A stretch of 32,000 bases of DNA. Origin: Pirellula staleyi DSM 6068 (lineage in GTDB: Bacteria > Planctomycetota > Planctomycetia > Pirellulales > Pirellulaceae). Positions 5,913 to 25,127 of the stretch are shown piece after piece (within the stretch, counting starts at the first letter, position 1; each line of letters begins with the position of its first letter). The notes under the pieces were generated by a model, which ran no database searches, was not told the origin of the DNA, and worked only from the letters and a program-made list of their open reading frames with translations. Made by a program: the position numbers and the translations under genes. The stretch lies in contig CP001848.1 of assembly GCA_000025185.1 (NCBI GenBank), positions 3,540,001 through 3,572,000 of the forward strand, in the 5' to 3' direction.

Positions 5913-6067
5913 GACGGACAAAAACAGCGCTTAGCGCCAGCGCTTGAACCTAAATCGATAGCGCCCGGGAGGCTGCACATTCGTGTGGCTCCTGCGGGTG
6001 GCCCATGACATAACGCAGTTACCCCCTCTCCAAATTTTTCTATTCCTTTTCTACTTGGGGTGTCTCG

Positions 6068-7003
6068 ATGCGCGCACGTACTCGTTTAGGCTTTACGCTC
6101 GTAGAGTTGCTGGTGGTGATTGCAATTATTGGGGTGCTGGTGGCGCTGCTGTTGCCCGCTGTGCAAGCAGCGCGCGAAGCAGCCCGCCGGACACAGTGCC
6201 AAAACAATTTCAAGCAAATTGCGCTCGGCATGCATAACCACCACGATGTCCATTTGGCGCTACCGGCCGGGATGGGGCCAAGTGGTTGCTGCTGGGGAAC
6301 CTGGCAGGTGCTGATTCTGCCGTATGTCGAGCAGACGAACGTGTTTGATAAGTACGTGAACTGGGGTGGCAACGATTCGACCAACGGTGGTACTCGCTAC
6401 AGCGGCGCGCCAAACACCACGAACGTCACGAACATTCGCTTCAAGGCGTTCACATGCCCGAGCGATCAGCCGAACTCGCCGATCGGGTCGATCACGAATC
6501 ACAACTACGCCGTGAACTTTGGCAACACCAGTGGCGCGCAGCATGCAACGCTCAACAGCGTGACGTTTCAGCAGGCTCCGTTTGCGGTGAGCAAAAATCT
6601 GACCGACAACAAGTTCAAGGGGTATAACCTGGCGCATATCCTCGATGGAACGAGCAACACGCTGATGGTGGGTGAAGTGCTGCAAGGACAAGGGAGCGAT
6701 TTGCGTGGGTTCACCTGGTGGGGCGATGCCTGCCAGTTCACCACCTACTTGGCTCCCAACAGCCCACTTCCCGATCGGATTTACACAGCCGGTTATTGCA
6801 ACAATCTGCCGCTGCGGAATTTGCCTTGCGCTGTTTCGTCGAGCTCCGATCCCTCGATGTTCGCCTCGCGCAGCCGACACCCTGGTGGTGTGCAAGTCGC
6901 ACTGTGCGACGGCTCGTCGCGCTTCATTTCGCAAACGGTGGATATGAACGTTTGGCGGGCCATCAGCACCGCCCAAGGTAGCGAAGCAGTGGCTGTTCCT
7001 TAA
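6068..7003 (+). CDS. DUF1559 domain protein with prepilin-type N-terminal cleavage/methylation domain
   Basis: N-terminus [45 protein letters not shown]-terminal [18 protein letters not shown] is the typical DUF1559 end. Confidence 0.9.
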
Positions 7004-7177
7004 GCTTGCTGAGCTGAGACTTCGTCTGTCGTCAATGTCATGCTGCAATCAGTAGGCTGCCATCCAGTGTGCCACTGGGCTCTGCCCAGTGAGACGTGCG
7101 AGACGCCAGTGGCACCCCAAAACAGCTGACATAGATCGATTGACGGATTACTAAGCCTGAAAATCTCCCCGCGCACG

Positions 7178-7227
7178 AAAAAGGGGCTCGCTGAACGATG
7201 ATTCAGCGAGCCCCTTTTGTTTTTTGA
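7178..7227. terminator. Bidirectional intrinsic terminator between convergent genes
   Basis: Perfect hairpin aaaaggggctcgctgaa / ttcagcgagcccctttt with a 6-7 nt loop. It is flanked by an A-run on the left and gtttttt on the right, and lies between the 3' ends of 6068-7003(+) and 7274-7597(-). Confidence 0.65.
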
Positions 7228-7273
7228 TTCGTGCTGTTTTCTCAGACTTCCATCAGCGTGCTTGAGCGGCTTC

Positions 7274-7597
7274 TTACAGCTGCTTCAGCAGTTCGATTGC
7301 TACGGGACGAGCGGTGGCTGGATTGGCTTTGATTCCCATCAAGCCTTTCTCGAGGATGTCACCCTTGGCGGCATCCTTTTCCTTCACTCGCTTAATGAGA
7401 TCGGGATACGATTCAGCTTCGCTCGTGACAGGCATGCCGTTGGCGTAGTTGGTGAGAATCGCTTTGGCTTCGTTGATCGGGTCAACGACGGTCACTTGAT
7501 ATGTTTCGATCTCGGGAGTGCCACTTTGAGCACAGCCGACTCCGAACATTGCAGCGGCTACGAGAGCAGCTGCAAGCAATTGGCGGTTCATGTTCAT
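7274..7597 (-). CDS. Small lipoprotein downstream of a DUF1559 gene
   Basis: MNMNRQLLAAALVAAAMFGVGCAQ is a signal peptide plus lipobox. Start chosen at the ATG at 7597 (alternative 7591) rather than the track start at 7630. Confidence 0.6.
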   Translation of the reverse strand: MNMNRQLLAAALVAAAMFGVGCAQSGTPEIETYQVTVVDPINEAKAILTNYANGMPVTSEAESYPDLIKRVKEKDAAKGDILEKGLMGIKANPATARPVAIELLKQL

Positions 7598-7704
7598 TCC
7601 TGGAATGGTTCGTAGCGGAAAGGAAAACATCCGATCTCGCGCGGCGAAGCAAAACGCTTGCCGCGCGCTGGATGCTGGTGGGATAGAGCGAGCGATGCGT
7701 GCGA

Positions 7705-8799
7705 TTAGAAGTTGGCCAGAGGCTGTCCGTCGCTACGATTGCCAACGCGCTGCCAGGTGAGCAGATCGATGGTGTTGGTGACGAAGCGGACCGAGCCATC
7801 TCCCATCACGGCATTCACACCGTTGGGGTGCATGGAGCGAGCTGGCAGCACGGCATTGCTCCAGTCGTGAGCACCACCGGGGCAGCAGTTGCCACCGGCC
7901 GAAGGAAAACGCCAGTTTGGTGGAGCGGAGGTGTTGAGGGTCGAGTGACCAGCAGCATACCAGGCCCAGTTGCCACCGTTGTTGCCACGGAAACCACCAC
8001 CCGAGAGAGCCTTGGCAGCAGTGCCGATGGCGTCGAGTTCCGCTTGGGTGGGGAAGTCTTTGTTGACAACCGAGGTGAAAGGACCATCGCCACCATAGAA
8101 GATGTCGAAGGGGTAAGTAGCAGCGCCCGAGTTGACGCCGGTTCCACCGAGGAATTCCGAGGCGAGCAGGGTGTTGCTCAAACCATCGGTGGCATCGCGC
8201 ATGCCACGTTCGTTTTGGTAAGCGATCAAACCGTTGAGGTTCTGACCAGCCCACACCACTTCGGTGCGGCTGCCGGTCGACCAGCCGTAGTTACAGCCAG
8301 GACCACCCCAGCCGACCGAGCGCGTGGCGCGGTGCGTGGCCGAAGGGCATTTGAAGACCTTCAGTTCGACGTTCATCGGGCCGTTGTAGTCGAAGCTCCA
8401 CATCGCCGAGTCACCCACAGCGCCAGCGCCGGTCGATTGACCAGGCAGGGCGGTGGTGGGAATGCGGAACTGCTGAAAAACGGTCTGCTGTTCGATGAAC
8501 GGCAGGATGAAATAGTGGGCGCTCAGCGCTTCCCAAGCGTTCGGGCCGACGAGCTGATAGTTGAACGGGAACTTGTTGTTCGTGTCGCGGAAATTGTGGA
8601 TGCCGATGCCGAGCTGTTTCAGGTTGTTCGTGCACTGGGTGCGGCGAGCAGCTTCGCGTGCAGCTTGCACGGCTGGCAGCAAGAGCGCCACCAAGACGCC
8701 GATGATCGCAATCACGACCAGCAGCTCGACGAGCGTAAAACCGGCGAGCGCGCGAGTGCTCGGCCCCCGCGACTTGCGGGACATTCGGGAGAGGTTCAT
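7705..8799 (-). CDS. DUF1559 domain protein with prepilin-type N-terminal cleavage/methylation domain
   Basis: From the ATG at 8799: [63 protein letters not shown]-terminal [17 protein letters not shown]. The N-terminal 29 aa of the track ORF look like read-through. Confidence 0.9.
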
Positions 8800-9223
8800 G
8801 GGTACACCAGGTAGATGAAGAAAGAATGAAGTGCGAATTCGCGGGCCGAATACCGGCCGCGACACACAATGGAGCCAAACTTGCAAGGGGGCTTAGCGTT
8901 GCCTTAGCCACCCGGGACGGTCTGGAAACCGGCACTCTCAATCGTATCGACGCTGGCGTGCCGATGCTACTGCGCTCACAAAGTTCTGGGCGGTTTTTTC
9001 AAGAAAACGTTTTTCATGAACGTCCATTGAGGGGTGTTTGGTTAGCCAGAAAGAGTGGTTTTGTTTTCGTAATGCTAAGTAGACGCAGCACCCTTAAGCT
9101 ACCGGCTGAGAGAGCAGCGGCGAAGCCTCGTGAGAAGGGGCGTGAGCACTGATTTTGTGCTACACGGTGCACTTGCTGGGGTCATGGCTGTACTTCAGCA
9201 GCGCAGAACAGAGCCACCCAGGG

Positions 9224-9336
9224 TAGGGGCCGGCTCCACCGGCCGAGAATCGATTAGGGCCGGTCGAGGATCGAGTAGAGCCGGTTCTACCGGCCGGAAA
9301 TCTACCTCGGCCCGGCAGCTGGAGCGGCTGCCGGAC
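9224..9336. repeat. Cluster of GC-rich stem-loop repeats (GGCCGG-N5-CCGGCC type) just downstream of the 9363-10355 gene
   Basis: Three hairpins: 9228-9244 (ggccgg ctcca ccggcc), 9280-9294 (gccgg ttcta ccggc), and 9312-9334 (ccggcagc N7 gctgccgg). Units 1 and 2 are about 70% identical over 30 nt (ggccggctccaccggccgagaat vs agccggttctaccggccggaaat). Confidence 0.5.
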
Positions 9337-9362
9337 CGTAAATACTATCGCTGTGGTGGCGA

Positions 9363-10355
9363 TTAATAGCGGATGATGTAGTCGAGCGTCAGGCGGTTCT
9401 GCAGCACGCCGCGCTCGTCGGTCAGGGGGACTTCGAAAGCGACACCGATCTCGCGCAGATCGGAGGGGCGATATTTCAGCCCGAGTGCCCCGGTCACAAT
9501 GTCGGTGCCAGCCACGCCGGTCGAGCCAAAGTTAAACAGGTCGGTCCCTTGGATACCATCGAAAGCGGCGTTTCCGCCATCCTTCATCCAGTGGTACCAG
9601 TTTCCTTCAGCAAAGGCATAGAACCGCGAGTTGCCGATCGGCTGATCGACGTGAGCCGACCAGTAGAAGATCTGGTTTTCGTCGACCGTGTCGGTGGGGA
9701 GGCGAAAGCCGGCGGTCGTGATCAAGTGATTGCAGTTGCCGAACTCGGCACCGTAGGAAGCAAACAGGTTGAATTCGCCCGAGCCGTTTCCTTGCAGCGC
9801 TTGGGGGCTGCCGATCGGCAGTTCGAACGTCACACCGGCGCTCAGAATCCGCTGGCACTCCACATCTTTCCAAAGGTTGTATTTCAGACCGAGCGCGACA
9901 TCGGCCCAACCGTCGTCGAGCGGGGCGATACCGGTCGGGAAGATATAGCCATCTTTGGTGGCGATCAGCGACAGGTCTTCCGTCAGCGCGGCTCGCAGCT
10001 GCACCGCCAGCACTTGCAACTTGCTCGCCGGGATTGCTCCGCCAGCGAGATCAGGAATTTGGTGATCGATGAAGATGAAGCGGGCCTCGGTGAGGGTCCG
10101 CGGGTCCTCGAAAAAGACCGGGTTGGTCATCGGGCTAATGAAGTTGGCCCAGCGCGTGTCGGTGGGAGCGATGAACCCGAGCAGCAGATCTTTCGAACAG
10201 CAGTCGCAACATTCGTCGCACGCCGGGGGGGCATAGGCAGGAGCAGGGCTCTCCTCTACGGCCGGGTTATAAACCCATTCTTCGGCCATCGCGGAACTAC
10301 TGAGTAAAAGAGCGAGCAAACTTCCTGCGAGCGAAAACTTCCAACGCTTAGTCAT
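9363..10355 (-). CDS. Secreted protein, putative outer-membrane beta-barrel
   Basis: Signal peptide MTKRWKFSLAGSLLALLLSSSAMA. Cys cluster CDECCDCC near the mature N-terminus. Alternating beta-strand-like pattern with a C-terminal aromatic residue (..LTLDYIIRY), typical of OMP barrels. Confidence 0.6.
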   Translation of the reverse strand: MTKRWKFSLAGSLLALLLSSSAMAEEWVYNPAVEESPAPAYAPPACDECCDCCSKDLLLGFIAPTDTRWANFISPMTNPVFFEDPRTLTEARFIFIDHQIPDLAGGAIPASKLQVLAVQLRAALTEDLSLIATKDGYIFPTGIAPLDDGWADVALGLKYNLWKDVECQRILSAGVTFELPIGSPQALQGNGSGEFNLFASYGAEFGNCNHLITTAGFRLPTDTVDENQIFYWSAHVDQPIGNSRFYAFAEGNWYHWMKDGGNAAFDGIQGTDLFNFGSTGVAGTDIVTGALGLKYRPSDLREIGVAFEVPLTDERGVLQNRLTLDYIIRY

Positions 10356-10771
10356 GGGTGAATCCTTCCATCCGATTGCCTGACCTGTATCCCTACGCGC
10401 AAAAAATCTGGCTACAGCAGGCCAGTTGGTGGGCGTATCGACGGTGCTCGATGTGTGCGATGAATCAAATAGCCGCGCGCCGCTAAAGTCCCTTCAATGC
10501 ATGCGGAAGGAACCTTAATCCCCGATGAACTGAGCGGTTTCGCGCACGAAAACCCCTCGCGAGAACTGATCGCACATCGAGACAAAATGACGCATATCGG
10601 CAATGGAAGATCGCCCCAGTCCGCTGCTGATCACCAAGCATCGCCGCGCGACTGTCGGCTGTAACGACCTGCGTCTGGCTGCTGCATCCGCAGCGCATCA
10701 CCTTGGCGGGAATCTTTATCGAGCAACCTTTCTTTATGCCCACCCAAGAGGGCGCGATAAGCGTGTGTACC

Positions 10772-10879: not shown

Positions 10880-13432
<2,553 letters not shown>

Positions 13433-13449
13433 TCATGCAGTATTGTAGC

Positions 13450-13512
13450 CTGCCGTCGATATATCCAATGCATTTTGCTAATATGTGCTATGCATACAAT
13501 GCATCGATACTT
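13450..13512. promoter_or_regulatory. Candidate OxyR operator / divergent katG-oxyR promoter region
   Basis: AT-rich stretch in an otherwise GC-rich intergenic region, with three ATGCAT palindromes (ccaATGCATttt, ctATGCATac, caATGCATcga) and flanking tcgat/atcga arms. Divergent LysR-target gene geometry. Confidence 0.35.
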
Positions 13513-13523
13513 GTGAGGGATTT

Positions 13524-14390
13524 ATGGAACTGGATCAGTTGCGCTACTTCCTGAAGGTCGCCCAGCGGGGCAATTTCACCCGCGCCGCCGAAGAGCTGAT
13601 GATTTCGCAGCCCGCCCTCAGCCGATCGATTCAGAAGCTGGAAGAAGAACTCGGACAGCCTGTGTTTGAGCGAAAAACCCGTTCGGTGCTACTCACCGAC
13701 GCCGGAACGCTGCTGCAAGCCCGTTCGCAACAAGTCCTCACCATCCTGGAGGACACCAAGTCGGAAATCACCGACGACGGACAATGTGGGCGGGTGCGGG
13801 TAGGCGCCATCCCCACCATTGCTCCCTATTTTCTACCCGAAGTTTTGCAGCGTTTCTCTGCTAAGTTTCCCAAAGCGAACCTCATCGTTCAAGAGAATAC
13901 GACCGACGTTCTCATCAAAAGCTGCCGCCAAGGAGAGATCGATTTGGCGATCTTGGTCCTTCCTGTTCCGGCCAAGTACCTCGAAGTCGAAGAGCTGTTT
14001 GAAGAAGAGCTGCTGCTCGTTCTCCCCCCGCATCACGCGCTGGTGGAGAAAGACAAAATCCGTGTTGCCGATGTCGAGCCGTTTCCCTTCGTGCTGCTCG
14101 ACGAAGCGCATTGCCTGTCGGACAACATCGTCTCGTTCTGCCGTCAGCGATCGTTTCAGCCGGTGGTGGTCGAACGCACGAGCCAACTCACCATGGTGCA
14201 AGAGCTTGTTTCCCTCGCGCACGGCATCTCGCTCATCCCCGCGATGGCCCGGCAATGCGACCAAAGCCAGCGTCGCGTCTATCGTTCGTTCACCGGACGC
14301 AAACCGACGCGCACCGTCGCCGTCGCCTGGAACCCCTACCGTTTCCAAAGTCGGCTGCTCGTCGCTTTTCGCGAATGCCTGCGCCGCTGA
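13524..14390 (+). CDS. oxyR: LysR-family redox regulator OxyR
   Basis: From the ATG at 13524: [44 protein letters not shown] (LysR HTH). The redox Cys pair has E. coli OxyR C199/C208 spacing ([11 protein letters not shown]). The gene is divergent from katG. Confidence 0.85.
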
Positions 14391-15031: not shown

Positions 15032-15250
15032 AGCAGCAAGTCGCTCGAAGTAGCCAAACGACTAGCCAGGCAATTCTTCGACAGCAGCGCGACACGAGTG
15101 TGGCGCGACTTCGAAGGGGCGTGACACGAGTGTGCCGCGATTTTTGATAGCAGCGCGACGTAAGAACGATAAATCTCAGAAAACGGAGGCGGGGTTTTGC
15201 GAAGATCATCCGCCGCTTAAAATACCTTTCTAAGCTCTACAAGCTAAGCC

Positions 15251-15337
15251 GGATGGGTGGCCGAGTGGTTTAAGGCAGCAGTCTTGAAAACTGCCGTAGT
15301 CGAAAGGCTACCGGGGGTTCGAATCCCTCCCCATCCG
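15251..15337 (+). tRNA. tRNA-Ser (anticodon UGA), class II with long variable arm
   Basis: Acceptor GGATGGG/CCCATCC plus discriminator G. D-arm GCC-GAGTGGTTTAA-GGC. Anticodon stem GCAGT/ACTGC with loop CTTGAAA. Variable arm CGTAGTCGAAAGGCTACCG. T-arm GGGGG-TTCGAAT-CCCTC. Confidence 0.9.
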
Positions 15338-16604
15338 CTGGGTATGTCGCACCAATTAGCAGGGTGTCGTTTTCCCTAGGAATATCGCACTTTTCATTTT
15401 TGCGGTGCGATTCGGTGCTAGTGTACACGGTAGTGTACTGCTTCGGATTCTGCTTCGCCTTTTCGGGGCTGGTTTCGGGCTCGTTGGTAGCCTTGGCGAA
15501 GTGGTCTTCGGTTGTCTGAAAGTAGTGTTTGCGGGCGACTTCTTCGCTGTTTCCCAGCCACTCGCAAACCACATGCGAGGGGAATTGCTCGGCTAGTTCT
15601 GTCTGGCGTGAGCTTCGCAAGTTGTGGAACAGGCGCGGCCAAGGTTTCAGGCCAGCGCGTTTGACGATCTTCTCGAAGGTTGTCCGCAAATTGCAATTGC
15701 GCCAGCCGGTTTCGATCTTCTGCCGCGATACGAGCTTGTCATCAATAACGTGCACGGCTCCTTCGGGAGCCAGGGCGAAGGATGTCTCGAGGTGCTCGAG
15801 CAGTTCGGGGAATAGCGGGATCGTGCGCGATTCCTTGCCGACGTGGTGCTCGGTCTTTGGCGAGCGGACGTTGATTCGTTTGGCGGACCAATCGACATCT
15901 TGCCAGCGGAGCGAGAGAACTTCACTAGGGCACCGCAGGCCACCGAAACGCGCTAGGGCGACAATCAACCGCCAATGATGGTCGGGGCAGGCCTCGAGCA
16001 GTTTGGCGGCATCCTGAGGCGTGATGAAGTGGCTACGGTCGGGCATCGAGGCTTGAATCGAAACGTCGGCAAAAGGGCTTTCCAGAATCAGCCGACGGCG
16101 CACCGCGGCGCGGAATACCATCGTCGCAAACTGCAATCGCTTCCGAACGGTCATCGGCGCGAGCTTCGTCCCCAGCAGGAACAGCTTGTAGTTGTCGGCA
16201 TCCCCAGCGGAAATATCGCGCAGCTGTTTCGACTCGCCAAAGTATTCGAGCAAGCTTCGCTCCCCCTGCTTCCAAATTACTTTGGTCGCTGGTTTGACGT
16301 CGGTTCGACCGGCGACGTACTCGGCAATGAATGGGCCAAGGTTCGATGCCGCGCGGCTGGGGCAAAGTCCTACCGCTGCCACCTTATTCTGTAGCGTGGC
16401 GTCGATGCTCGAGAGCCATGCCGACAAATCGCGGTCGTGAGCGTTGCCGGTCATCTTGGCCGATAGCAACTGCTCGACTCGCGCACAAACCGTTTCGGCG
16501 GTTTTCTGTGTTGCCTTGCCAAGTCGGATCGTTTGCCGCTTCTCGCTATCGTCGACAAATTGAATCCACCGATGCCCATCAGGGCGTTTGACGATGCTTG
16601 CCAT
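15270..16604 (-). CDS. Tyrosine-type site-specific integrase
   Basis: 444 aa. N-terminal SAM-like/arm region. Catalytic-domain motifs are RFGGLRCPSEVLSLRWQDVDW (Arg), HNLRSSRQTEL (H-x-x-R) and VARKHYFQ (Tyr). The 3' tail of the ORF crosses attL and overlaps the tRNA on the opposite strand. Confidence 0.9.
   Translation of the reverse strand: MASIVKRPDGHRWIQFVDDSEKRQTIRLGKATQKTAETVCARVEQLLSAKMTGNAHDRDLSAWLSSIDATLQNKVAAVGLCPSRAASNLGPFIAEYVAGRTDVKPATKVIWKQGERSLLEYFGESKQLRDISAGDADNYKLFLLGTKLAPMTVRKRLQFATMVFRAAVRRRLILESPFADVSIQASMPDRSHFITPQDAAKLLEACPDHHWRLIVALARFGGLRCPSEVLSLRWQDVDWSAKRINVRSPKTEHHVGKESRTIPLFPELLEHLETSFALAPEGAVHVIDDKLVSRQKIETGWRNCNLRTTFEKIVKRAGLKPWPRLFHNLRSSRQTELAEQFPSHVVCEWLGNSEEVARKHYFQTTEDHFAKATNEPETSPEKAKQNPKQYTTVYTSTESHRKNEKCDIPRENDTLLIGATYPADGEGFEPPVAFRLRQFSRLLP
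15318..15347 (+). repeat. attL core: 30-nt direct repeat (tRNA-Ser 3' end plus 10 nt)
   Basis: ttcgaatccctccccatccgctgggtatgt is identical to 22850-22879. Confidence 0.85.
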
Positions 16605-16607
16605 AGC

Positions 16608-16835
16608 TTATTTGCTTTCCTGATCGGCTTTGCGACCGAGTGTAATTTTGAGTTCGAGGAACTGCCCGATCGCGTTCAGAGCTTCGGTCGAGAGTCCACG
16701 TTGCCCGTTATAGAACAAAGCGAGCGTTGCTTCGCTGATGCCGGTTTCCTTCGCGATTCGATAGCGGGTAAATCCCGAATCGTCGATCGCTTGGCGAATC
16801 TGATCGGTCACAAGTTTGGTTCGCTTCTTGGCCAT
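16608..16835 (-). CDS. XRE-family helix-turn-helix DNA-binding protein
   Basis: 75 aa. TRYRIAKETGISEATLALFYNGQRGLSTEALNAIGQFL is a classic HTH_3-type motif. Its stop codon ends 3 nt upstream of the integrase start. Confidence 0.7.
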   Translation of the reverse strand: MAKKRTKLVTDQIRQAIDDSGFTRYRIAKETGISEATLALFYNGQRGLSTEALNAIGQFLELKITLGRKADQESK

Positions 16836-16906
16836 AGCCTGCTAGCCTACTAGTTACTTTGCGCTGTGTAAAGCTGTTTGCTGGTGGTGATTGCCGATAG
16901 CTTGTC

Positions 16907-18892
16907 TCACCCCGCTTCTAGTGCCGGTGGTTCCTCGAGGCTATCCGACATGGCCATCTTGGCAATCTTGGAACTGTTGCCATCGAGATACGCCAGATTT
17001 CCCGCAGTTTCTTCAACATTGCCAAGAGTGCCAAGTTCTGTCGCTTCGGCTGGGCTGGCATTGTTGTCGGGCCATCGCCACCACCAAGGGCCAGGGATTT
17101 CGTGGCGCTCGGAGATAATTCCTAGTTCTCGCTTGGCTCGCCCTAGCGTTCGTTTGCTTCCCGCTTCGCCGTTCTTCCATTCGTCTTCAAGTTCTTTTGC
17201 CAAGCGAGGGCCACTTGCGAGCGCCGACGTCAGCCAATCCACTGCTTCGCTACGTGTTGCCGCTATCGGGCCGGGTTTGCCTCGAGTCGATTGTTTGTAC
17301 TGAAGCGCGAGAGCATCGTCGGCACTCATCGCCACACTATCCGCTTCCCAAACAATTCGCGCAGGTTCGCCGCTGATTGAATAGGCTAGCCCCTCTCCTT
17401 CGTGGGCAAGGTTGTTTTTGCCAGGAAGAAACAGCCGACGTTCCTTGTTGTCGGGATCGCGGGTGATATGCCACACCGCTCGGGCAATGCCGGTGAACGC
17501 GCGGCTACCTAGGGCCAGTTCGTCGGCACTTGTTCCGGCTCCCTTCCGTCGATGGGCAACGATCAAAACAGCTGCGCCAACTTTCTCAGCAAGCTTGAGA
17601 ATAGGAGTGAGCACCGATCGCACTTCGTTGTCTCGGTGGGCGTCGGTCTTCCCACCAAGAAAGCTGCCGATAGGGTCAATCACAATCAGCTTGCAGTCGG
17701 GGTATCTCTCTAGGGCCGATTCGATGGCATCGACATCAGCAAGCGTTATCAGCTTTTCGTACCGCTGCCCCTCACCATCAACGCGGCGAACCGCAGCAAG
17801 CAGTTGCACCTTTCGTGCGTCGGCTCCATGAGCATCGAGTCGGGGGCGAATAGTGTCAGCTGGGTCGTCTTCGGCAGAAATGAGAATCACCGACCCTTGG
17901 GGGCAGGGGCGACCATCGGGCCAAGGGGTGCCGGTAGTAACTCGCGAAGTGGCGTCGATCGTCATGAACGACTTTCCCTCGCCAGGACTGCCGACTAGCA
18001 GTGTGATTCGTCCCATCGGAATACGGCCGGGCCATAGCCAGTCGACTTCGCGGGCTTCAACATCAGCAAGGCAAGTTAGAATCGGGCCGGGCTCGAGTGG
18101 TTGCTCGGACTCGGGAATTGGCGTCGGTTCCCACATGGGGGTTGCTTTCAATAGTTGGGCGAGTTGTTCGAGGGTTCCTCCTGCTGCAATCCAGTCGCTT
18201 ACGTCTCCTTTCAGAGGCAGGCCGGGGAGTTTGACCACTCGAATCGACTTCGCGATTCCTTCAAGGGTATGGGCCACTTGCTGGGCGTGATTGCGGCCGG
18301 GCTCGTCATTGTCGGGGAAGATCACGACATCGCGACCAGCGAGAAACGCGGCGTGCTCGGCGGTCCACTTTCCAGCGCCGCCAGCGTTGCATGTGGCAAG
18401 CATTCCAAGGTCCTTAAGGTTGTCGACGTCTCTCTCCCCTTCTGGAATACCGACGTCCACACCGGGGTTGCCGACGATGTCAGGGAGGCTATAGGGGATC
18501 ACTCGCACACCTTTCACGGACCAATCCCAGCCACCACCCTCGCTCGGCTTTCGCTGCCGAAAGTCTTTAGGCTCGAAGCGCACCACTTGGAAAAGCACCT
18601 TCCCCGTTTCGTCGCGATAGTCGTACTCGGCGACAATCTTGCTACTTGTCTTCGGTCGCTTTTGTGGTCGATCACGCTCGGGCCAAAGGTCGCGCTTTTC
18701 GATGCCCATGGCTTGGCAGATTTCCTCGAGCGAGCACTTGGCGTGGCAGGTGAGAAGCACGTTCCCTTGGTCCCCTACCGCAATCGAAAGGCTGGGGTTT
18801 CGGTCGTTATGCGCGGGGCAACAGGCTTTCCACCTATTGCCTGATTGCCTCACGTTTTCAAGCTTGGCGAGCACTTTATCGATGGGGCTCAT
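16907..18892 (-). CDS. Primase-helicase: CHC2-like zinc finger plus Toprim primase fused to a RecA-like (AAA_25/RepA-type) ATPase
   Basis: From the ATG at 18892: MSPIDKVLAKL. Zinc motif CCPAHNDRNPSLS...LLTCHAKC. Toprim DVVIFPDNDEPGRNHAQ. Walker A LLVGSPGEGKS, Walker B-like LIVIDPIGSFLGG. The ATGA overlap with the upstream Xis-like ORF (18889-18892) supports this start over 19012. Confidence 0.85.
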   Translation of the reverse strand: MSPIDKVLAKLENVRQSGNRWKACCPAHNDRNPSLSIAVGDQGNVLLTCHAKCSLEEICQAMGIEKRDLWPERDRPQKRPKTSSKIVAEYDYRDETGKVLFQVVRFEPKDFRQRKPSEGGGWDWSVKGVRVIPYSLPDIVGNPGVDVGIPEGERDVDNLKDLGMLATCNAGGAGKWTAEHAAFLAGRDVVIFPDNDEPGRNHAQQVAHTLEGIAKSIRVVKLPGLPLKGDVSDWIAAGGTLEQLAQLLKATPMWEPTPIPESEQPLEPGPILTCLADVEAREVDWLWPGRIPMGRITLLVGSPGEGKSFMTIDATSRVTTGTPWPDGRPCPQGSVILISAEDDPADTIRPRLDAHGADARKVQLLAAVRRVDGEGQRYEKLITLADVDAIESALERYPDCKLIVIDPIGSFLGGKTDAHRDNEVRSVLTPILKLAEKVGAAVLIVAHRRKGAGTSADELALGSRAFTGIARAVWHITRDPDNKERRLFLPGKNNLAHEGEGLAYSISGEPARIVWEADSVAMSADDALALQYKQSTRGKPGPIAATRSEAVDWLTSALASGPRLAKELEDEWKNGEAGSKRTLGRAKRELGIISERHEIPGPWWWRWPDNNASPAEATELGTLGNVEETAGNLAYLDGNSSKIAKMAMSDSLEEPPALEAG

Positions 18893-19095
18893 TGGTTGCC
18901 CCCTTGTCGCTGCGAGGCAATCCAGCGTTCGATGTCGACAATCGAATAGCGCACCAATCGACCACACCGCACATACGGCAGGCCGGGCGTTTCTTCGAAG
19001 GTCATCCCCCAAAGTTTGCGAGGCGAAACAGCAAGCATCTTGGCCGCTTCGCGAGGGTCAACTAACAACTGCTTGGTAGGCTGTCGATCGTTCAT
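18889..19095 (-). CDS. Excisionase-family / AlpA-like helix-turn-helix protein
   Basis: 68 aa. LLVDPREAAKMLAVSPRKLWGMT...LPYVRCGRLVRYSIVDIERWI matches the HTH_17/excisionase pattern. Translationally coupled to the primase. Confidence 0.75.
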   Translation of the reverse strand: MNDRQPTKQLLVDPREAAKMLAVSPRKLWGMTFEETPGLPYVRCGRLVRYSIVDIERWIASQRQGGNQ

Positions 19096-19160
19096 CTTCG
19101 TTCCCTTCGTGCATGAGTTACTAGCGAGTGTTTCTCGTCAGCTCCCAAACTAAGGGACGT

Positions 19161-19278
19161 TCCGACAGATCGAATTTGTCGGAGAGAATTGTCGGAAAGA
19201 TTCGCGTCAGAGTGCGAGTATTTGTAGGGGAAAGCAGGGGATAGTTTTTCTCTCCGACAATTGTTTTGCTTGTCGGAG
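19161..19278. promoter_or_regulatory. Iteron/operator array: five TGTCGGA/TCCGACA heptamers upstream of the Xis-primase-HTH-int operon
   Basis: TCCGACA at 19161-19167 and 19253-19259. TGTCGGA at 19177-19183, 19190-19196 and 19271-19277. Two pairs form inverted repeats with 9-nt spacers (19161-19183, and ctccgacaa-N9-ttgtcggag at 19252-19278). Confidence 0.5.
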
Positions 19279-20583
19279 TCACTTGCCAGAAGCACGCTTT
19301 TGTCGCTGGTACACACGATCGAGCAGATTATCGAATTCAGCGATTGACATATCTAATCCGCGAGCGAAATCACCTTTGTAAGTACCCACTTCCTTCGCAT
19401 TCTTCCAGTCGTCTGCAATCCGCTGTTCGTCGTATTCCTCTCGCTCAGTTTTTTGGGGGCCTCGCTTCTTTCGAGTTTGCTTCACTTTGGAAGGTGCTGC
19501 TTCTGGTGGCTTGGTGATTTCTAGCAGCATCCCTAGGAACTCTTTGACGGTTGTATTCTCATCAACCACAGCGCCCCGGATTTTTAGCATTCCACGAATC
19601 ACTTCCCATTCGGGCTGGTGCTTATCCATGCCAGGGGCGAAGACTTCGAGGCGAGCGAGATCGTCGGCACCTATCACCATGGACGGAAGTTCAATCGTCG
19701 GAAACATGCTGGGCGTTACGTTCTTCACCTTCTCACTCTCGCGCGTCATCGGCGCGAACGGCTTTTCGAGCCATCGCACCGGGCGATTGGGGTCGAGAGG
19801 TGCGGCTTCACTCTGCGAGGCCTTGTAGGTGGTTACACGAATCGGCTGAAGTGATTCGCGTGGGTCCGCTTTGGTAGTAAAGCTGGTGAATTCAACCGGC
19901 CTCATCGACTCATCAAACTTGCGGCGCAGGGTGCTCGATGCAAGTCGCAGGTATTGAACTGCCTCGAGCAGATCGTTGAATACGATCGTATCTTCTTCAT
20001 AGACTTCAAAGTGAACTCGCTGGAAATCCGGTGGCATCTCTTCCGGTTCGGGGTAGCTTTCATGGTTGGGGAAAAGCTTCTTTAACTCTTCGTAGTGAAG
20101 GTCAATCAGGAACTGCGGAGCGTAGTGAATCTCGATCGTTTGCTTCTTTCCGACATCGCCGTTGAGAATCTGCGATGCCGTGAAATTGAGCTTCGCAAGT
20201 CGTTTCCATGGTGTGTAGAGCTTCTGCTTGAACTCGTTCGCGTAGTCGACTCCGACGTTCACTTTGAGCCACTCGATGCCCCGCTCTACTTGATATTTGC
20301 GGAAGAGAATATCGAGGTCGAGTGCTTCCAGGGGCAATCGCAGCTTGGCCAGTTGTTGCGATATAGCTTCGAGGCGTTGCCTTTGGTGGTCGGTGAGCTT
20401 CTCGAGTTGTTGCCAAACAGATTCGCGAATCGCTCGCGCTTCGTTGGATAGTTTGCGATGCTTCGCATGATCGGCAGGACGATGATAGTCAGCTGCGATG
20501 GTGCCAAGGTCTTTGGCAAGTGGGTCGAGACAATCGTCGCAAAGGTGCCAGGAATCAGAAGCTTTAGCCATCGTGCTCGACAA
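19279..20583 (-). CDS. Hypothetical protein (434 aa), no recognised domain; basic C-terminal tail
   Basis: Long ORF with normal amino-acid composition, unlike the Arg/Pro-rich spurious frames. It lies within the island, co-oriented with the replication/integration module. I recognise no family. Confidence 0.65.
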   Translation of the reverse strand: MSSTMAKASDSWHLCDDCLDPLAKDLGTIAADYHRPADHAKHRKLSNEARAIRESVWQQLEKLTDHQRQRLEAISQQLAKLRLPLEALDLDILFRKYQVERGIEWLKVNVGVDYANEFKQKLYTPWKRLAKLNFTASQILNGDVGKKQTIEIHYAPQFLIDLHYEELKKLFPNHESYPEPEEMPPDFQRVHFEVYEEDTIVFNDLLEAVQYLRLASSTLRRKFDESMRPVEFTSFTTKADPRESLQPIRVTTYKASQSEAAPLDPNRPVRWLEKPFAPMTRESEKVKNVTPSMFPTIELPSMVIGADDLARLEVFAPGMDKHQPEWEVIRGMLKIRGAVVDENTTVKEFLGMLLEITKPPEAAPSKVKQTRKKRGPQKTEREEYDEQRIADDWKNAKEVGTYKGDFARGLDMSIAEFDNLLDRVYQRQKRASGK

Positions 20584-21140
20584 TCCGCAAGGGTGGTGGG
20601 CTACTACCTACAACCCCAGCAAAATGAAGCATTCGCGAGCAACTGGCAAGCGTAGCTTTGCCATTAGGTGCGACAATAAACGAGCAGAAGCAACACGCAG
20701 CAAATACCGATACTGACAGCAAACCCCATTCAAGAAACTATGGCCGTAAAATGTCCCCGCTATGCTCGACGGTCTCGGCACTTCCCTAGCGCCGGATTAT
20801 CGCCCCTAGGGCCTCGCATCACCGGATGCCGGGTTTCCCACTTTCCCGAAAACTCTAGCCTAGGTTCACGTTCGGTCTAGTGCTCGTCAGTCGCCACAAA
20901 ATGAACGTAGGGGGGCTGGGGTTGGGTGATTGCGGGCGTGGTGGTTTACTTGCTGAACTTGCCGCGGGATTCGCGGGCGAAACCGAGATCGGCCAAGGCG
21001 TCGAGAATTTCTTCGATCTGCTCGGCATTTCCGCGGGTGAATTGCATGGCAAGTAATCCGGGGTTAGGTTAGCCAACTTATCTAGGAATTTCAGATCCGT
21101 ATCGACCGTCCCACGTTACGCGCTTTTGGGAAATAACTTA

Positions 21141-22220
21141 ATGAGTCTTCGGCCGCAGCAAGACGTCCACAAAAGTCTAATATCGACCACAAGTCGGCTA
21201 GTTGGTGAGTACGAGACGGACTGTGCCTTGCTCTCTCATGCATGGCCTGACTTTAGGGATCGAAGCGCTTTTATTCGCAGGGAGGAAGGACCCGCTTCAC
21301 GAAGCGCCTTCATTTTTGCATTTCGAACCGTTGTGTCCGAGGAAAGAATGGGGCCAGTTCCCAACTACAACCCTGTCGGTGAAATGATCTGTTCGTACCT
21401 TGCAGTTCTTTACGGAAAGCGATTTGACTCTCACGGGCAAATAGAGGGAAGCGGTTACTTTCGACTCCCCGATCTAAGTGAGTTTGGGCATTTATGCCGA
21501 AGTGATCTATCGTTCAACTCCCATAAAGTGCGAGTCGACTACTCTGTGCCCCTCAATCTAGTAGAGTTCTCGCGTATTGAGCGACTACTAAAGGCTGGAG
21601 CAATTGACATAAAGTTTCTGCGGTCGTTTCAGACTATTTGCAAGTTCTACCTTCAATCGTTGCAAACAGCTGAGCATGATCCAGAAGTCGCATACCTTCA
21701 TTTGATTACTGCAATCGAGGTGCTTTCGAACTTCTTTGAGTTCGAGAAGGATGAGTTGCTTGACGACAGAACATTGAATGCGTTGAGTGAGATCGAAAGC
21801 GGATTGACCGACGGAAAGCAGATCGCTGCTTTGTTTCGCAGTAGGATGTTGCAAGTTAAACGTCGTTTTTTGAAGTCTGTTCTTCGGCTAGTCGACGACG
21901 ACTTCTTTACGCGATCAGAGGCAACTGAGCCACTATTTGCTCTGAAGCTTGACAGTTTTGAATCATGTATGGGCGCTGCCTACGACCTTCGAAGCAGATA
22001 CGTGCATACAGGAGTACCGTTCGGGTCCTGGGTTTCGAGAGGAATTGGCGGGCCAAATACAGAAGTGCAAGTTGGTGCGCCTGTTGTCGACGAAGATCGA
22101 GAACTTGGGAAGCTTATTGGGAGGGCCCCAACGTTTGCGGGATTGGAACGTGTAACGCGATATGTGATTCTCAGATTGGCAGAATCACAGGGTGTATACG
22201 TGGCACCGCCTTCGACTTGA
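21141..22220 (+). CDS. Island cargo protein with C-terminal HEPN-like domain (R-x4-H motif); putative RNase/abortive-infection-type effector
   Basis: Start at the ATG at 21141 (the track start at 21126 is TTG). The motif AAYDLRSRYVHTG places R-x4-H at nt 21990-22007. It is preceded by the helix AYLHLITAIEVLSNFF. My spot GC counts of 60-nt lines are about 45-50% here versus about 63% in katG. It is the only plus-strand gene in the element. Confidence 0.6.
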   Translation: MSLRPQQDVHKSLISTTSRLVGEYETDCALLSHAWPDFRDRSAFIRREEGPASRSAFIFAFRTVVSEERMGPVPNYNPVGEMICSYLAVLYGKRFDSHGQIEGSGYFRLPDLSEFGHLCRSDLSFNSHKVRVDYSVPLNLVEFSRIERLLKAGAIDIKFLRSFQTICKFYLQSLQTAEHDPEVAYLHLITAIEVLSNFFEFEKDELLDDRTLNALSEIESGLTDGKQIAALFRSRMLQVKRRFLKSVLRLVDDDFFTRSEATEPLFALKLDSFESCMGAAYDLRSRYVHTGVPFGSWVSRGIGGPNTEVQVGAPVVDEDRELGKLIGRAPTFAGLERVTRYVILRLAESQGVYVAPPST

Positions 22221-22248
22221 AATAGCCAGTCAAACTGTGATTTAGCAA

Positions 22249-22503
22249 TCAACCAAACAACAGGAAGTGTGCAATGAACTCACTTAGCTGGGTGAGGAAC
22301 AGAGCATAGTTAGCACGCTCGGCCGCTGCCGACGATTGCCAATCGGCGATGAACTTCTCGAGGTCAACGGCGGGGCTGGTGGGCTGATTCACGGGAGAGT
22401 CGATACCGATGGTTGCTTGCGAGCTAGAAAGGGGGCTCGCTGTTATACCATCCATCGGAAGGGGGCGACTAGGAATCGCGATTAGCTCGCCTACCCACGG
22501 CAT
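22249..22503 (-). pseudogene. Truncated N-terminal fragment of an MmeI/PglX-like (type IIL/IIG) DNA methyltransferase
   Basis: VDLEKFIADWQSSAAAERANYALFLTQLSEFI matches the conserved N-terminal F-I-x-x-W...ERANYQLFL-x-x-L motif that I recall from MmeI-family/BREX PglX enzymes. The ORF stops after about 84 aa, 29 nt from the end of the HEPN-like gene. Confidence 0.5.
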
Positions 22504-22849
22504 CGGGTCCTATGGCTGAACCTTTGCAGCTGGGGATATCCGGAACTAGCGACGGTGCCAAGTTCCTTAGATGGATCGGGCAGAGCAAAAACAGTTCAGT
22601 GTCCTGCTAGTTCGTCACTGCGTCGCATGCGTTGGAAGCGGGAAAGAACCTAAGCCCTGGGGCCTAGGCCGATGGTCGTGAAGCTTTGACCATGGCCAGA
22701 ATGCCCGCGCGGAGAGGCTCGGGGAGTGTGGGCCAAGCTTCGAGCAGGGCTCGCAAACGGGGATCGGCGGAAACTGCTTCGGATTCTGCTTCGCCTTGCT
22801 TTTCAGAATGACGTAAGTTGTTTGTGTGACAATGCTTTACGTCGATCGC

Positions 22850-22879
22850 TTCGAATCCCTCCCCATCCGCTGGGTATGT
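22850..22879 (+). repeat. attR core: partial tRNA-Ser 3' end copy
   Basis: ttcgaatccctccccatccgctgggtatgt is identical to 15318-15347. The upstream sequence (gtcgatcgc) does not match the tRNA body, so this is not a second tRNA. Confidence 0.85.
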
Positions 22880-23006
22880 TGCGCCGAGAATCGCAGGGTC
22901 TCGTTTTCCCTAGGAATATCCCACTTTTCATTTTTGCGGTGCGCGAAAAGATTGATGCGCGGGTGCTAGTGTACACGGTAGTGTACTGCTTCGGATTCTG
23001 CTTCGC
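22880..23006 (-). pseudogene. Remnant of an integrase 3' tail (homologous to 15348-15460)
   Basis: About 127 nt aligns with the integrase-tail region right of attL, with scattered substitutions and one ~14-nt indel. The minus-strand translation keeps AKQNPKQYTTVYTST. Homology ends at about 23006. Confidence 0.6.
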
Positions 23007-23467
23007 TCCATCTAGCATCGATTGGGGATCGGCTTGAGCCGTGGCGAAGAACCTGCCCCCATTGGCAGATTTTGTTCGCGCAGAGACCTCTCACGAATTC
23101 GAGATATCGTCGAAAGCCTCGGGGCCTACTAGCAAGGCTTTTTAACGATTCGCTTGATGCGGGTTCTGACCGATTCCGCGGGACTGTGCCACTGCAGCAC
23201 AGCAGGGTGTGCGGAACTGATTCGCTCAAGAAGAATTGCACGCCCATGGCTCCCTGCGGTTGCTGGGCCGAGGTGCGTTTTTCTAAGCATTTTTCTTAGC
23301 ATACTTCCCCGGACCGACGCCTGATTCTTCGCTCCATTGGAGCCAACAACGTCGTAATGCGAGGAGTGGCTCAGCACCACAATTCAGCATGGCACAGTTA
23401 TTGCGACACTAGAGCCTTGGGTTCATCACTGGGGAGTGTTTCGCTCTGCGAAAGGTGCGGTGTGGCC

Positions 23468-24601
23468 ATGCGTAACCTCATGCTTTGGTTCGTGTTTCCT
23501 GCGGCTCTTTTAGGAGCCACTTACGCGCATGCTGACAATCAACAATCGTTTGATCAGCTTGGAAAAGAACTCGGTGAAATTGCTGCCAAAGCGTCGGCCG
23601 AAGCCGATCCGAAACTGCGTTCCCAGCTACAACAGCAGGCCATCGCAAAGCAGCAAGAGCTAACGCAGTTTCTTGCAAAGCTTGACGTTGATTCGCGATC
23701 AAAACTGCGAGTCCATAATGACCCGCTGGCCATCTTAAAAGAAAGACTTGAGCAAGGGCGTGCGCTCTACGCCAAGAATGAAGATGCCGCTGCCCTGGCC
23801 ATAAAATTCTGTCAGGAGGCAACTGCAGAAACGGACCCTCTCTTAAGGGAGGGAAAACTGCAGAAAGCCGAGCAGCAAATCCGCAAGTTAGGTGTGCGAC
23901 TAACGAGCATTCCTGACTATGCCATCATTGCCACCGACGTGGAGCTCTCTAGTGACTTGCTGGAAACCTTCACCAGCATCGCCAAGAATATTCGTCTTCG
24001 CGTTTACAGCAACACCATTCTCGAGAACCTGGAAGCACAGCTGATCGCTTTTCGTGAAAAGTTGAGTGCGGCACAAGACGAGAACCTTGTCTGGATAACC
24101 ACACAACATCAAGAGTTTGGAGATACCCTCGCGACCGCGGGACTTCTACCTCAAGGGACATTTGAGGGCATGATAACGGTCAGCAGTGCCCAACTGGTGA
24201 TGGTCGGTAATGAGAAAGAAAACGTAAAGTTCACAGAAGGGGCATTCACGGGGCGAATCAAACTGGTGCTGAAGGGAACTGTCGCTACGGGAGTTGTTTC
24301 TTTTGGGGAGGAGGAAGGTAGGTCGGTAGCAAGGCTGAATGGCACTATGAACGCAGCTTCTGGCAAGATCATGTTTCACCTTAACGCCCCAACTTTAGGG
24401 GCGATGCCTGGGGTGGTTGTTACACAGTTTCGTGGATTGGGTGATGGCACATCGGTGATGGCTAGCCGCATTGTTGGTAATTTGAGTTTAGATGTCAGCC
24501 TAACAGGTACTTGGGAAGAAGATGGTGAAACAAAGACTTCAGAGTTTCGTTTCACGGCTGTCGGCAAGTGGGAAGCAGATCAGCCTTTGGCTGTGAAATA
24601 A
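23468..24601 (+). CDS. Secreted hypothetical protein (helical N-terminal half, beta-rich C-terminal half)
   Basis: An internal ATG at 23468 gives MRNLMLWFVFPAALLGATYAHA (signal peptide). GC is patchy and lower than surroundings. I recognise no family. Confidence 0.65.
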   Translation: MRNLMLWFVFPAALLGATYAHADNQQSFDQLGKELGEIAAKASAEADPKLRSQLQQQAIAKQQELTQFLAKLDVDSRSKLRVHNDPLAILKERLEQGRALYAKNEDAAALAIKFCQEATAETDPLLREGKLQKAEQQIRKLGVRLTSIPDYAIIATDVELSSDLLETFTSIAKNIRLRVYSNTILENLEAQLIAFREKLSAAQDENLVWITTQHQEFGDTLATAGLLPQGTFEGMITVSSAQLVMVGNEKENVKFTEGAFTGRIKLVLKGTVATGVVSFGEEEGRSVARLNGTMNAASGKIMFHLNAPTLGAMPGVVVTQFRGLGDGTSVMASRIVGNLSLDVSLTGTWEEDGETKTSEFRFTAVGKWEADQPLAVK

Positions 24602-24659
24602 TTTGTATCTCCGATTACGGTGTCGCCACTCATCGGCCATTTTTAGGGAGTAACTACCT

Positions 24660-25127
24660 ATGAGACATTTCATTCCTTATGTCATCACATTAATGGTAAT
24701 GGGGGGCGTAGTAACCTCTAGCTTACGCGCAGAGGCACCACCGCAAGGGCAGCCCAAACTTGGGTTTACAGGAACGATTGTCGATATGCCCAAGGACTTT
24801 GAGATTCCAGCGCCCGAAGGGCTGCCGAATCGGGGCATACGGGTCGATCGTGTTAATGCCAGCGGACCAGCGGCAAAAATGGGGCTCGAGCGAGGCGACA
24901 TCATTGTTGCCATCGACATTTGGCGATTCACAACACTCGAAGGTTATCTTCAAGCTTTGCGATGCGCCGAGCAGCGTCCATCGATCTACATTCGGAACGT
25001 GAGAAATGGAAAGCTTATTCGCCGTACCATCGATTTGCCACATCAAGTCAACGAGGAAGAATGTATGGCTAAATCTCCCCACACCTATTGGATTGCCATC
25101 GATCTCGAAGAGGATATGCGTGAGTAG
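24660..25127 (+). CDS. Secreted PDZ-domain protein
   Basis: Signal/TM segment MRHFIPYVITLMVMGGVVTSSLRA. The PDZ core is GIRVDRVNASGPAAKMGLERGDIIVAIDIWRFTTLEGYLQAL. An agggag sequence lies about 10 nt upstream of the ATG. Confidence 0.75.
   Translation: MRHFIPYVITLMVMGGVVTSSLRAEAPPQGQPKLGFTGTIVDMPKDFEIPAPEGLPNRGIRVDRVNASGPAAKMGLERGDIIVAIDIWRFTTLEGYLQALRCAEQRPSIYIRNVRNGKLIRRTIDLPHQVNEEECMAKSPHTYWIAIDLEEDMRE

Follow-up and report, generated by a model that had tools for sequence, protein, structure and literature searches.

A compact island at tRNA-Ser in Pirellula staleyi, with an integrase gene that runs across the attachment site, as a probable member of an element family in Planctomycetota

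A 7.5-kb island lies at a tRNA-Ser gene of the planctomycete Pirellula staleyi DSM 6068, within a stretch of 32,000 nt (GenBank CP001848.1, positions 3,540,001 to 3,572,000; hereafter the window, whose numbering is used unless another record is named). We estimate at roughly 70% the probability that this island is intact, and probably still active, and that it belongs to a family of compact, integrative, self-replicating elements widespread in Planctomycetota. It is a tRNA-integrating, replicative, cargo-carrying island, and its notable features are a conserved gene slot, orfX, and an integrase gene, int, that is clipped by integration. An original prediction, drawn from the letters of the window, had assigned the island to satellites of the P4 or phage-inducible chromosomal island (PICI) type. 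It overlooked an older remnant to the right of the island, the conservation of the orfX slot and the course of the integrase open reading frame (ORF) across the attachment site.

The integration target is an intact tRNA-Ser(TGA) gene (15251-15338, + strand), called by ARAGORN and matched by Rfam RF00005 at 59.3 bits. It is the only tRNA gene that ARAGORN finds in the window, and an Rfam scan returned no other RNA. A 30-nt direct repeat, TTCGAATCCCTCCCCATCCGCTGGGTATGT, which consists of 21 nt of the tRNA 3' end followed by 9 nt, is present at 15318-15347 (attL core) and, without a mismatch, at 22850-22879 (attR core). The window holds exactly these two copies (0 expected from 100 shuffles), and they span 7.5 kb. 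The original prediction had recognized the repeat, its origin in the tRNA 3' end and the interval it brackets; the similarity does not stop at 30 nt, and 90% identity continues for ~145 nt.

Five genes are transcribed in one direction, toward the tRNA gene: orfX, alpA-like, primase-helicase, xre and int. The last of these (15270-16604, −) encodes a tyrosine integrase that is 444 aa long in its integrated-state form. The protein matches PF00589 (49 bits against a cut-off of 27; residues 193-364, with the catalytic residue Tyr361), the SAM-like domain PF13102 and phrog_1. The xre gene (16608-16835, −), whose stop lies 3 nt ahead of the int start, encodes a 75-aa XRE/Cro-type helix-turn-helix (HTH) regulator (PF13443, HTH_26) that is kept in relatives at 41-71% identity. 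Next is the gene of a 661-aa primase-helicase (16907-18892, −), in which a CHC2 zinc finger, a Toprim domain and a RepA-like hexameric helicase are fused. Its Pfam matches are Zn_ribbon_DnaG, Toprim_2 and AAA_25 only (PF01807, PF13155 and PF13481, respectively), and its best PHROG is phrog_239, "DNA primase/helicase". The helicase part resembles RepA of RSF1010 (1g8y). Among reference phages and plasmids, relatives of the primase-helicase are only distant (~31-33% identity) and those of the integrase are below 30%; small Streptomyces plasmids carry distant homologues. The start codon of the primase-helicase overlaps, as ATGA, the stop codon of the alpA-like gene (18889-19095, −), which encodes a 68-aa AlpA/Xis-like HTH_17 protein (PF12728, 30.1 bits against a cut-off of 27; phrog_66, excisionase/regulator). 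By its sequence, this small protein is a candidate excision directionality factor or activator.

Searches of the island ORFs against Pfam, PHROGs, NCBIfam and PADLOC gave no match to capsid, terminase, portal, tail, lysis, relaxase or type IV secretion families. Neither a coupling protein nor a recognizable oriT was found in the island. In these respects the original prediction was borne out: the searches recovered the gene content it had listed (integrase, XRE regulator, zinc-finger/Toprim primase joined to a RecA-like ATPase, AlpA/Xis-like protein, one large protein and one cargo gene), the primase/alpA coupling and the absence of capsid, terminase, tail, relaxase and type IV secretion genes. 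Its view of a discrete integrated mobile element, too small and gene-poor for a prophage or an integrative and conjugative element, likewise stands.

The island has many relatives. Among representative genomes, one per species, the primase-helicase has 233 relatives, mostly from Planctomycetota according to the record titles, and the gene order alpA-like, primase-helicase, (xre), int recurs in many loci. Integrases of the family adjoin at least 20 different tRNA or tmRNA genes. Six relatives are bounded by tRNA-derived direct repeats and measure 5.6, 5.8, 5.8, 8.0, 10.2 and 10.2 kb; one bounded relative lies in the complete genome of Fontivita pretiosa. Four loci (L016, L017, L042 and L122) sit in the tmRNA gene, and in the first three of these the int ORF overlaps 137 nt of it. 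The 10.2-kb relative L030, at tRNA-Tyr, encodes a 628-aa protein (4858-6744 of that locus, +) with RCC1 repeats and a Peptidase_S74 domain (endosialidase chaperone), as in phage tail fibres and spikes. Our literature searches found no paper linking Planctomycetes with phage satellites, or Planctomycetota with elements comprising an integrase, a primase and a tRNA target. The family thus appears to be widespread in Planctomycetota and undescribed, in keeping with the earlier expectation that such elements are essentially uncharacterized in this phylum.

Comparison with a sister strain provided evidence of mobility and of selection. A contig of a metagenome-assembled genome (MAG; L001, GCA_002483025.1), retrieved through the flank protein YciI, shares the flank and, at the same site, has a copy of the island in which all five core genes are present. 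Over 10.7 kb of flank the window and L001 are 98.7% identical, and their tRNA genes are 100% identical; inside the island, identity is 96.8% for int, 95.7% for the primase-helicase, 94.5% for the arm and 92.4% for orfX. The divergence of the island is 3-6 times that of its flanks and sets in precisely at the tRNA, which indicates that the island copies and the chromosome have separate histories, through exchange or re-acquisition. Four genes have more synonymous than non-synonymous changes, namely int (24:8), primase-helicase (50:26), xre (8:2) and alpA (3:0), and are therefore under purifying selection. A metagenome contig, L002 (ENA ERZ27292800 k141_499674; 7640-7855), joins tRNA-Ser to right-flank-type sequence that includes a diagnostic 14-nt insertion, and ends inside the arm repeat, 128 nt past the tRNA. 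It suggests an unoccupied site.

The int ORF contains no stop before the tRNA gene; in the window it ends 69 nt (23 codons) into the antisense of that gene. Among the 20 loci that have an adjacent tRNA or tmRNA gene, 18 have the int stop within its antisense, 70-137 codons past the catalytic tyrosine. In the reconstructed circle, the ORF stays open for 61 further codons and the protein is 490 aa long instead of 444 aa. The detached 3' end (61 codons; 22667-22849, −; ending ...DPRLRALLEAWPTLPEPLRAGILAMVKASRPSA) continues the int frame in the circular form only. It specifies a far-end peptide with the consensus D..L..L...WP.LPE.I+.AI.A[LM]V. A profile hidden Markov model (HMM) located this peptide in nine loci, ~80-100 nt inward of the far end; the elements there target tRNA-Ser, Lys, Thr, Tyr, Arg and tmRNA. 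In all seven elements for which both repeat copies are known, the peptide is in frame with int over the joined core. Besides the window, the loci with an attP-spanning int are L011, L016, L025, L030, L042, L052 and L070. The integrases of three of the seven in-frame elements (L011, L025 and L030) were not detected by tblastn with the window integrase. Between the window and L001, the detached tail has 8 synonymous and 8 non-synonymous changes in the int frame, as against 2:14 and 4:12 in the two remaining frames, and the peptide motif differs by three conservative replacements.

Viral records provided an independent view of the same gene. The integrase profile retrieved 73 IMG/VR loci, and in five records forming three sets (L105/L106, L114/L115 and L120) int and the peptide constitute a single ORF of 479-504 aa. 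The viral contigs with this uninterrupted int are 36-64 kb long and have no adjacent tRNA gene. Together, the conserved in-frame peptide and the uninterrupted viral gene argue that the full-length integrase is real. Integration is accordingly predicted to remove a conserved tail and to leave the catalytic domain intact. One of these records, L106, is a 35.7-kb contig whose features of interest (1411-4416, −; 6001-7479, +; 7721-9550, +; 9682-10400, +) include a portal-like gene next to the full-length int; an orfX-network protein, an alpA-like gene and a primase zinc finger are encoded downstream. This gene content makes L106 a candidate for a related or helper-type phage in Planctomycetota.

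We speculate that the long and short integrases differ in activity, stability or recombination direction, which would allow the element to sense whether it is integrated. Related arrangements exist in phages: integration separates int from sib in lambda and splits an operon in P2. Some mycobacteriophages, such as BPs and Brujita, have attP within their repressor gene, whose product loses a C-terminal degradation tag upon integration (PMC3694055). The lambda, P2 and mycobacteriophage systems share the logic of the proposed read-out.

Each arm of the island contains a copy of a 25-nt repeat, GCGAAGCAGAATCCGAAGCAG, which includes CAGAATCCG and fits the motif GC.CAGAATCCG..CAG. The int-proximal copy (15437-15461) lies within the coding region of the int 3' tail, ~90 nt inside the end of the island, and the int-distal copy (22773-22797) lies ~53 nt inside the far end. 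The Fontivita element, L040, has the same motif on both arms (7520, 13004 and 13058 of that locus), with the Pirellula and Fontivita integrases being only 43% identical. Two other relatives have arm-repeat pairs of their own. From their position and recurrence, we propose these repeats as candidate arm-type sites of an integrase with an N-terminal arm-binding domain. The motif coincides with a conserved KAAQNPAQQ stretch of the integrase tail, where constraint at the DNA level and at the protein level is inseparable.

The first gene of the operon, orfX (19279-20583, −), encodes a 434-aa protein. An AlphaFold (AF2) model built from 26 sequences is all-helical and has two domains (residues 5-230 and 360-431), both with pLDDT values above 90; Foldseek searches of PDB and BFVD with this model returned nothing below an E-value of 0.05. 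The original prediction had called the large protein an orphan. This proved incorrect: a full HMMER scan identified 168 relatives, which share either the N-terminal or the C-terminal domain, and the slot upstream of alpA is conserved. More specifically, a co-directional ORF of 166-444 aa lies just upstream of alpA in 14 of the 14 loci with an alpA-primase pair. Eight of these 14 ORFs form one similarity cluster, with mosaic links to the rest. Neither orfX nor ten of its relatives matched any Pfam, PHROGs, NCBIfam or PADLOC model. A single conserved C-domain was considered as the common denominator of the slot and rejected, as the C-domain model matched only L001 and L019 among the loci; a mosaic slot is preferred. 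The intergenic region upstream of orfX (20584-21125), which includes the left edge of the variable cargo slot (~20915-21044), presumably holds the operon promoter. A scan for promoters and terminators gave no result above chance, and a sigma-70 scan had no significant match.

The cargo slot extends from the region upstream of orfX to attR. In the window, it is occupied by a gene for a 364-aa protein (21126-22220, +; 359 aa in the database), with a GC content at third codon positions (GC3) of 0.47. This protein is a candidate member of the Apea-like HEPN family: it has 533 homologues in many phyla, some of which JGI and NCBI name Apea-like HEPN or HEPN domain-containing, and it contains an RSRYVH (Rx4H) motif; Pfam and PADLOC gave no match. 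Beside it is an 84-aa N-terminal remnant of an MmeI-type IIG restriction-modification gene (22249-22503, −; PADLOC PDLC03627, E 7e-5). The remnant is 90% identical to the start of an intact gene in L001. Homology between the window and L001 breaks at 21044 and returns at 22285, and the L001 sequence inserted between these points is this 1199-aa MmeI-family type IIG restriction-modification gene. By this comparison, the HEPN-type gene appears to have replaced an MmeI-type restriction enzyme in the window. A third strain, L104, retains orfX at 92% identity and diverges at ~20915 into another gene pair, encoding a tetratricopeptide repeat (TPR) protein and a 338-aa fragment. Identification of the fragment as a type I restriction subunit was dropped after searches of Pfam, PADLOC, NCBIfam and PDB sequences gave no confirmation. 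The comparison of the window, L001 and L104 thus reveals three different cargoes in one slot of three close strains; two of these cargoes are, by their sequences, of a recognizable anti-phage type.

The cargo side of the wider family was surveyed in 126 ORFs of 24 loci. Recurrent PHROGs matches were helicases, reverse transcriptases, methyltransferases, a kinase and an Abi protein, and no capsid, terminase, portal or tail family was among the PHROG matches listed. PADLOC matches included type IIG restriction-modification, Cas3, PD-T4-6 and DrmMI.

To the right of attR, the island adjoins what appears to be the remains of an earlier occupant. The segment 15318-15461 aligns with 22850-23009 at 130 of 144 positions (90%), with 16 additional gap columns. 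Weak similarity to the C-terminal ~50 residues of the integrase, in decayed form, was picked up by a translated search as far as ~23105. The extended repeat and the decayed int match indicate that attR is directly adjoined by what was the int-proximal end of an older, related element. Its remnant (22880-23105) comprises the arm region, a third copy of the arm site (22985-23009) and the decayed int 3' end. Beyond it are the genes of a secreted-looking protein of 414 aa and a PDZ protein of 155 aa (23357-25127, +). Their GC3 is 0.51, as compared with 0.58-0.67 in the island core and 0.69-0.76 in chromosomal genes on both sides, and they were probably left behind by the older element. The foreign-looking codon composition extends to ~25.3 kb, and GC3 is back to 0.69 at 25410. 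No third att copy bounding the remnant was found. The extension of the repeat, the decayed int and the codon composition together point to an intact 7.5-kb element beside the tRNA and ~2.4 kb of an earlier, outward-pushed occupant. The same pattern of outward-displaced remnants at tRNA targets has been described for tycheposons (bioRxiv 10.1101/2020.12.28.424599).

These data are consistent with the following working model. The tyrosine integrase and the AlpA/Xis-like protein would integrate and excise the element at the 30-bp core shared with the tRNA-Ser 3' end, using the arm sites. In this process, the HTH_17 protein would act as an excision factor, an activator or both, as AlpA and Xis proteins do. 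In the circular form, a 490-aa integrase with the conserved helical end peptide would be made, and upon integration a 444-aa protein with an intact catalytic domain. The excised circle would be copied by the element's own primase-helicase, the XRE protein is a likely repressor of the operon, and orfX may encode a protein that binds the origin or acts as an early regulator. Anti-phage genes would occupy the cargo slot and turn over quickly there, such as HEPN in the window, intact MmeI in the sister strain and a different set in the third strain. Hitch-hiking in phage capsids is a candidate route between cells.

Several observations weigh against this account of an intact, active element that reads its own state. 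The L002 contig is short, and its junction could alternatively be an assembly break from mixed strains. Metagenome scans recovered no unambiguous empty attB: a scan with the 414-aa right-flank protein found nothing, and one with the core sequence yielded a distant tRNA-Ser, accompanied by a related integrase, and nothing else. The attP junction had no match in IMG/VR, and there was no direct sign of excision. Of the checks that accompanied the original prediction, that for an empty site gave a suggestive contig and nothing firmer, and that for a circular junction was negative. No replication origin was identified in the island. With respect to the integrase tail, the codons upstream of the core show 4:5 changes relative to L001, with no clear protein-level constraint, and the conservation of the tail may in part reflect DNA sites, not protein. 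A single-sequence AlphaFold model of the long integrase was uninformative (pLDDT 38), and the proposed difference in activity between the two integrase forms is pure inference. The orfX gene has 37 synonymous and 41 non-synonymous codon changes relative to its L001 copy, far more protein change than the neighbouring core genes, and would on this count be under relaxed or diversifying selection. Finally, the cargo-side survey took in ORFs within 8 kb, so that part of the neighbourhoods may fall outside the elements, and the cargo of several small relatives had no match to a defence model.

The best-surviving alternative, which we regard as possible and clearly less probable than the account above, is that the island is a minimalist phage satellite. 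Such an element would bring its own three core functions, excise and replicate upon infection by, or induction of, a helper and be packaged in helper capsids without a capsid-remodelling or terminase gene of its own; its defence cargo would protect the host and the relationship with the helper. The combination of int, an alpA-like gene, a primase and a few unknown genes in 5.6-10 kb is that of the phage-inducible chromosomal minimalist islands (PICMI; PMC10803314), and a defence hotspot is a typical trait of P4-like satellites (PMC13586616). The phage-sized viral contigs that share the integrase family, the orfX-network protein, the alpA-like gene and the primase zinc finger imply that possible helper or ancestor phages exist, and the tail-fibre-like RCC1/Peptidase_S74 gene of the 10-kb L030 fits the same idea. 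Against this, the island has no counterpart of Psu, Delta, Sid, Ash, a capsid-morphogenesis protein or the small terminase TerS. Searches turned up neither a helper phage nor a packaging site nor a virion-derived copy; none of the viral contigs had non-coding similarity that would point to a common packaging site, and IMG/VR contained no close copies. Moreover, the authors of SatelliteFinder regard int, alpA and primase alone as ambiguous (PMC10085698).

An extension of the satellite idea is that Planctomycetota harbour minimalist satellites derived from, and helped by, temperate phages of the same integrase family. In both, int would run across attP, and the long and clipped integrases would be a protein-level switch for integration state and recombination direction. 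We consider this more elaborate scheme doubtful; if true, Bacteria would have a first counterpart of the archaeal arrangement in which the att site lies within int.

Transfer without capsids is, in our assessment, also rather unlikely. It could proceed by trans-mobilization, with a conjugative element acting on a cryptic oriT, or by export in membrane vesicles and uptake, as proposed for tycheposons, which share key traits with the island and are enriched in vesicles (bioRxiv 10.1101/2020.12.28.424599). The RepA-like helicase, as in the mobilizable plasmid RSF1010, and the distant homologues on small Streptomyces plasmids would suit this route; the lack of a relaxase, coupling protein or recognizable oriT does not, nor does the fact that the island shares its backbone for replication and integration with phages. 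Least probable is a fixed relic, that is, an immobile, gene-depleted prophage or island kept for its useful HEPN cargo: an older decayed copy lies directly alongside, one cargo gene is itself a remnant, L001 has the island at the same site and phages with the same integrase family exist, but all five core genes are full length and were counted as under purifying selection, the att cores are perfect over 30 nt, the island is more diverged than its flanks from the tRNA onward, and random decay would not be expected to yield a compact five-gene module that recurs intact at many tRNA genes in many species.

The original prediction had deduced a planctomycete host from DUF1559 and DUF1553 flanks. 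The host is indeed a member of Planctomycetota, the 364-aa cargo protein being 100% identical to one from P. staleyi DSM 6068, and two DUF1559 genes are present in the left flank; no DUF1553 protein was found among the flanking proteins scanned. The left flank also contains a catalase-peroxidase gene (PF00141 peroxidase family, 814 aa) with a divergent LysR-family regulator (10880-14390), a region of ordinary chromosomal context that shares 98.7% identity with the sister MAG. Outside the island, ~110-165 nt upstream of tRNA-Ser, there are two 25-nt direct repeats in tandem (GCGCGACACGAGTGTGGCGCGACTT and GCGTGACACGAGTGTGCCGCGATTT; 15087-15143).

To our knowledge, almost nothing is known about mobile elements, phages and horizontal transfer in Planctomycetota. 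An element family present in hundreds of species offers a handle on the exchange of anti-phage genes in this phylum. Its small integrase, attachment sites and replication module are possible starting points for genetic tools in a phylum that lacks them. An int that is clipped by its own integration makes it testable whether the element reads its integration state through its own protein. The attP-spanning int also challenges the published view that recombination sites within integrase genes are confined to Archaea.

The satellite P4 integrates at a tRNA gene, and its alpha protein carries a superfamily 3 (SF3) helicase. The island resembles P4-like satellites in its tRNA target, in having an integrase, an AlpA-type protein and a fused primase-helicase within ~10 kb, and in its hotspot of defence genes. 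The P4-like model of SatelliteFinder calls for at least five of seven markers (int, Psu, Delta, Sid, an AlpA-type regulator, Ash/epsilon and alpha), and the island has counterparts of at most three: the integrase and the AlpA/MerR-type regulator are present, and a possible counterpart of alpha is the fused primase-helicase (phrog_239), whose helicase is of the AAA_25/RepA-like type and not SF3. No PHROG or Pfam match to Psu, Delta, Sid or Ash/epsilon was obtained for orfX, the HEPN gene or the small ORFs. In addition, P4-like elements are confined to Enterobacterales (PMC10085698).

The PICI model has five markers (int, regulator, pri-rep, capsid morphogenesis and terS), of which Types A and B need at least four. 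The island has three (int, regulator and pri-rep), and no island ORF matched a capsid-morphogenesis or small-terminase family. Like Gram-negative PICIs, it has int, alpA and pri-rep in one direction and no tail or holin genes; unlike PICIs, it lacks the capsid-morphogenesis and small-terminase markers. It would be a "Type C PICI" at most, a class that may equally comprise other mobile elements and was excluded as ambiguous (PMC10085698). The layout of int, alpA-like, primase-helicase and cargo does resemble P4, PICI and PICMI, as originally predicted. The identification as a P4/PICI-like satellite is not sustained by these marker counts, with no helper found.

PICMI of Vibrionaceae is a proven satellite with six genes, in which int, alpA and primase can suffice, and it protects its host against phages (PMC10803314). 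The Pirellula island is similar in its compactness (~6 kb in PICMI), its core of int, alpA-type gene and primase, its few unknown genes, its lack of a capsid-remodelling or terminase gene and its border direct repeats. It differs in its site, which is tRNA-Ser and not the position next to fis that is the hallmark of PICMI, and in its CHC2/Toprim/RepA-like fusion, the PICMI primase being of the DUF3987/DUF5906 type. A known helper and proven packaging further set PICMI apart from the island.

As for the attachment site inside int, the "suicidal" integrases of SSV type likewise have their site within the ORF and are split by integration, an arrangement stated as known only in Archaea (PMC8371274). 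The archaeal split separates the N-terminal from the catalytic part, inactivating the enzyme, which belongs to PF16795. By contrast, the Pirellula split falls ~70 codons after the catalytic tyrosine, the full PF00589 domain is kept and there is no PF16795 match. The mycobacteriophages BPs and Brujita share with the island an attP in coding sequence, a difference between viral and integrated forms and the removal of a C-terminal segment; their split gene is the repressor and the segment removed is a degradation tag, whereas the Pirellula split gene is the integrase.

Tycheposons of Prochlorococcus and other marine bacteria target tRNA and tmRNA genes, including tRNA-Ser(TGA) (bioRxiv 10.1101/2020.12.28.424599). 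They share with the Pirellula family a tyrosine recombinase, a primase/helicase replication module, cargo, tRNA/tmRNA targets and tandem integration, as well as decaying remnants distal to the tRNA and a patchy spread among close strains. They belong to another phylum and carry mostly nutrient-acquisition cargo, unlike the defence-type cargo of the island family, and the likeness is one of lifestyle. Overall, the Pirellula element works like a minimalist satellite or a tycheposon, yet stands outside any defined satellite family.

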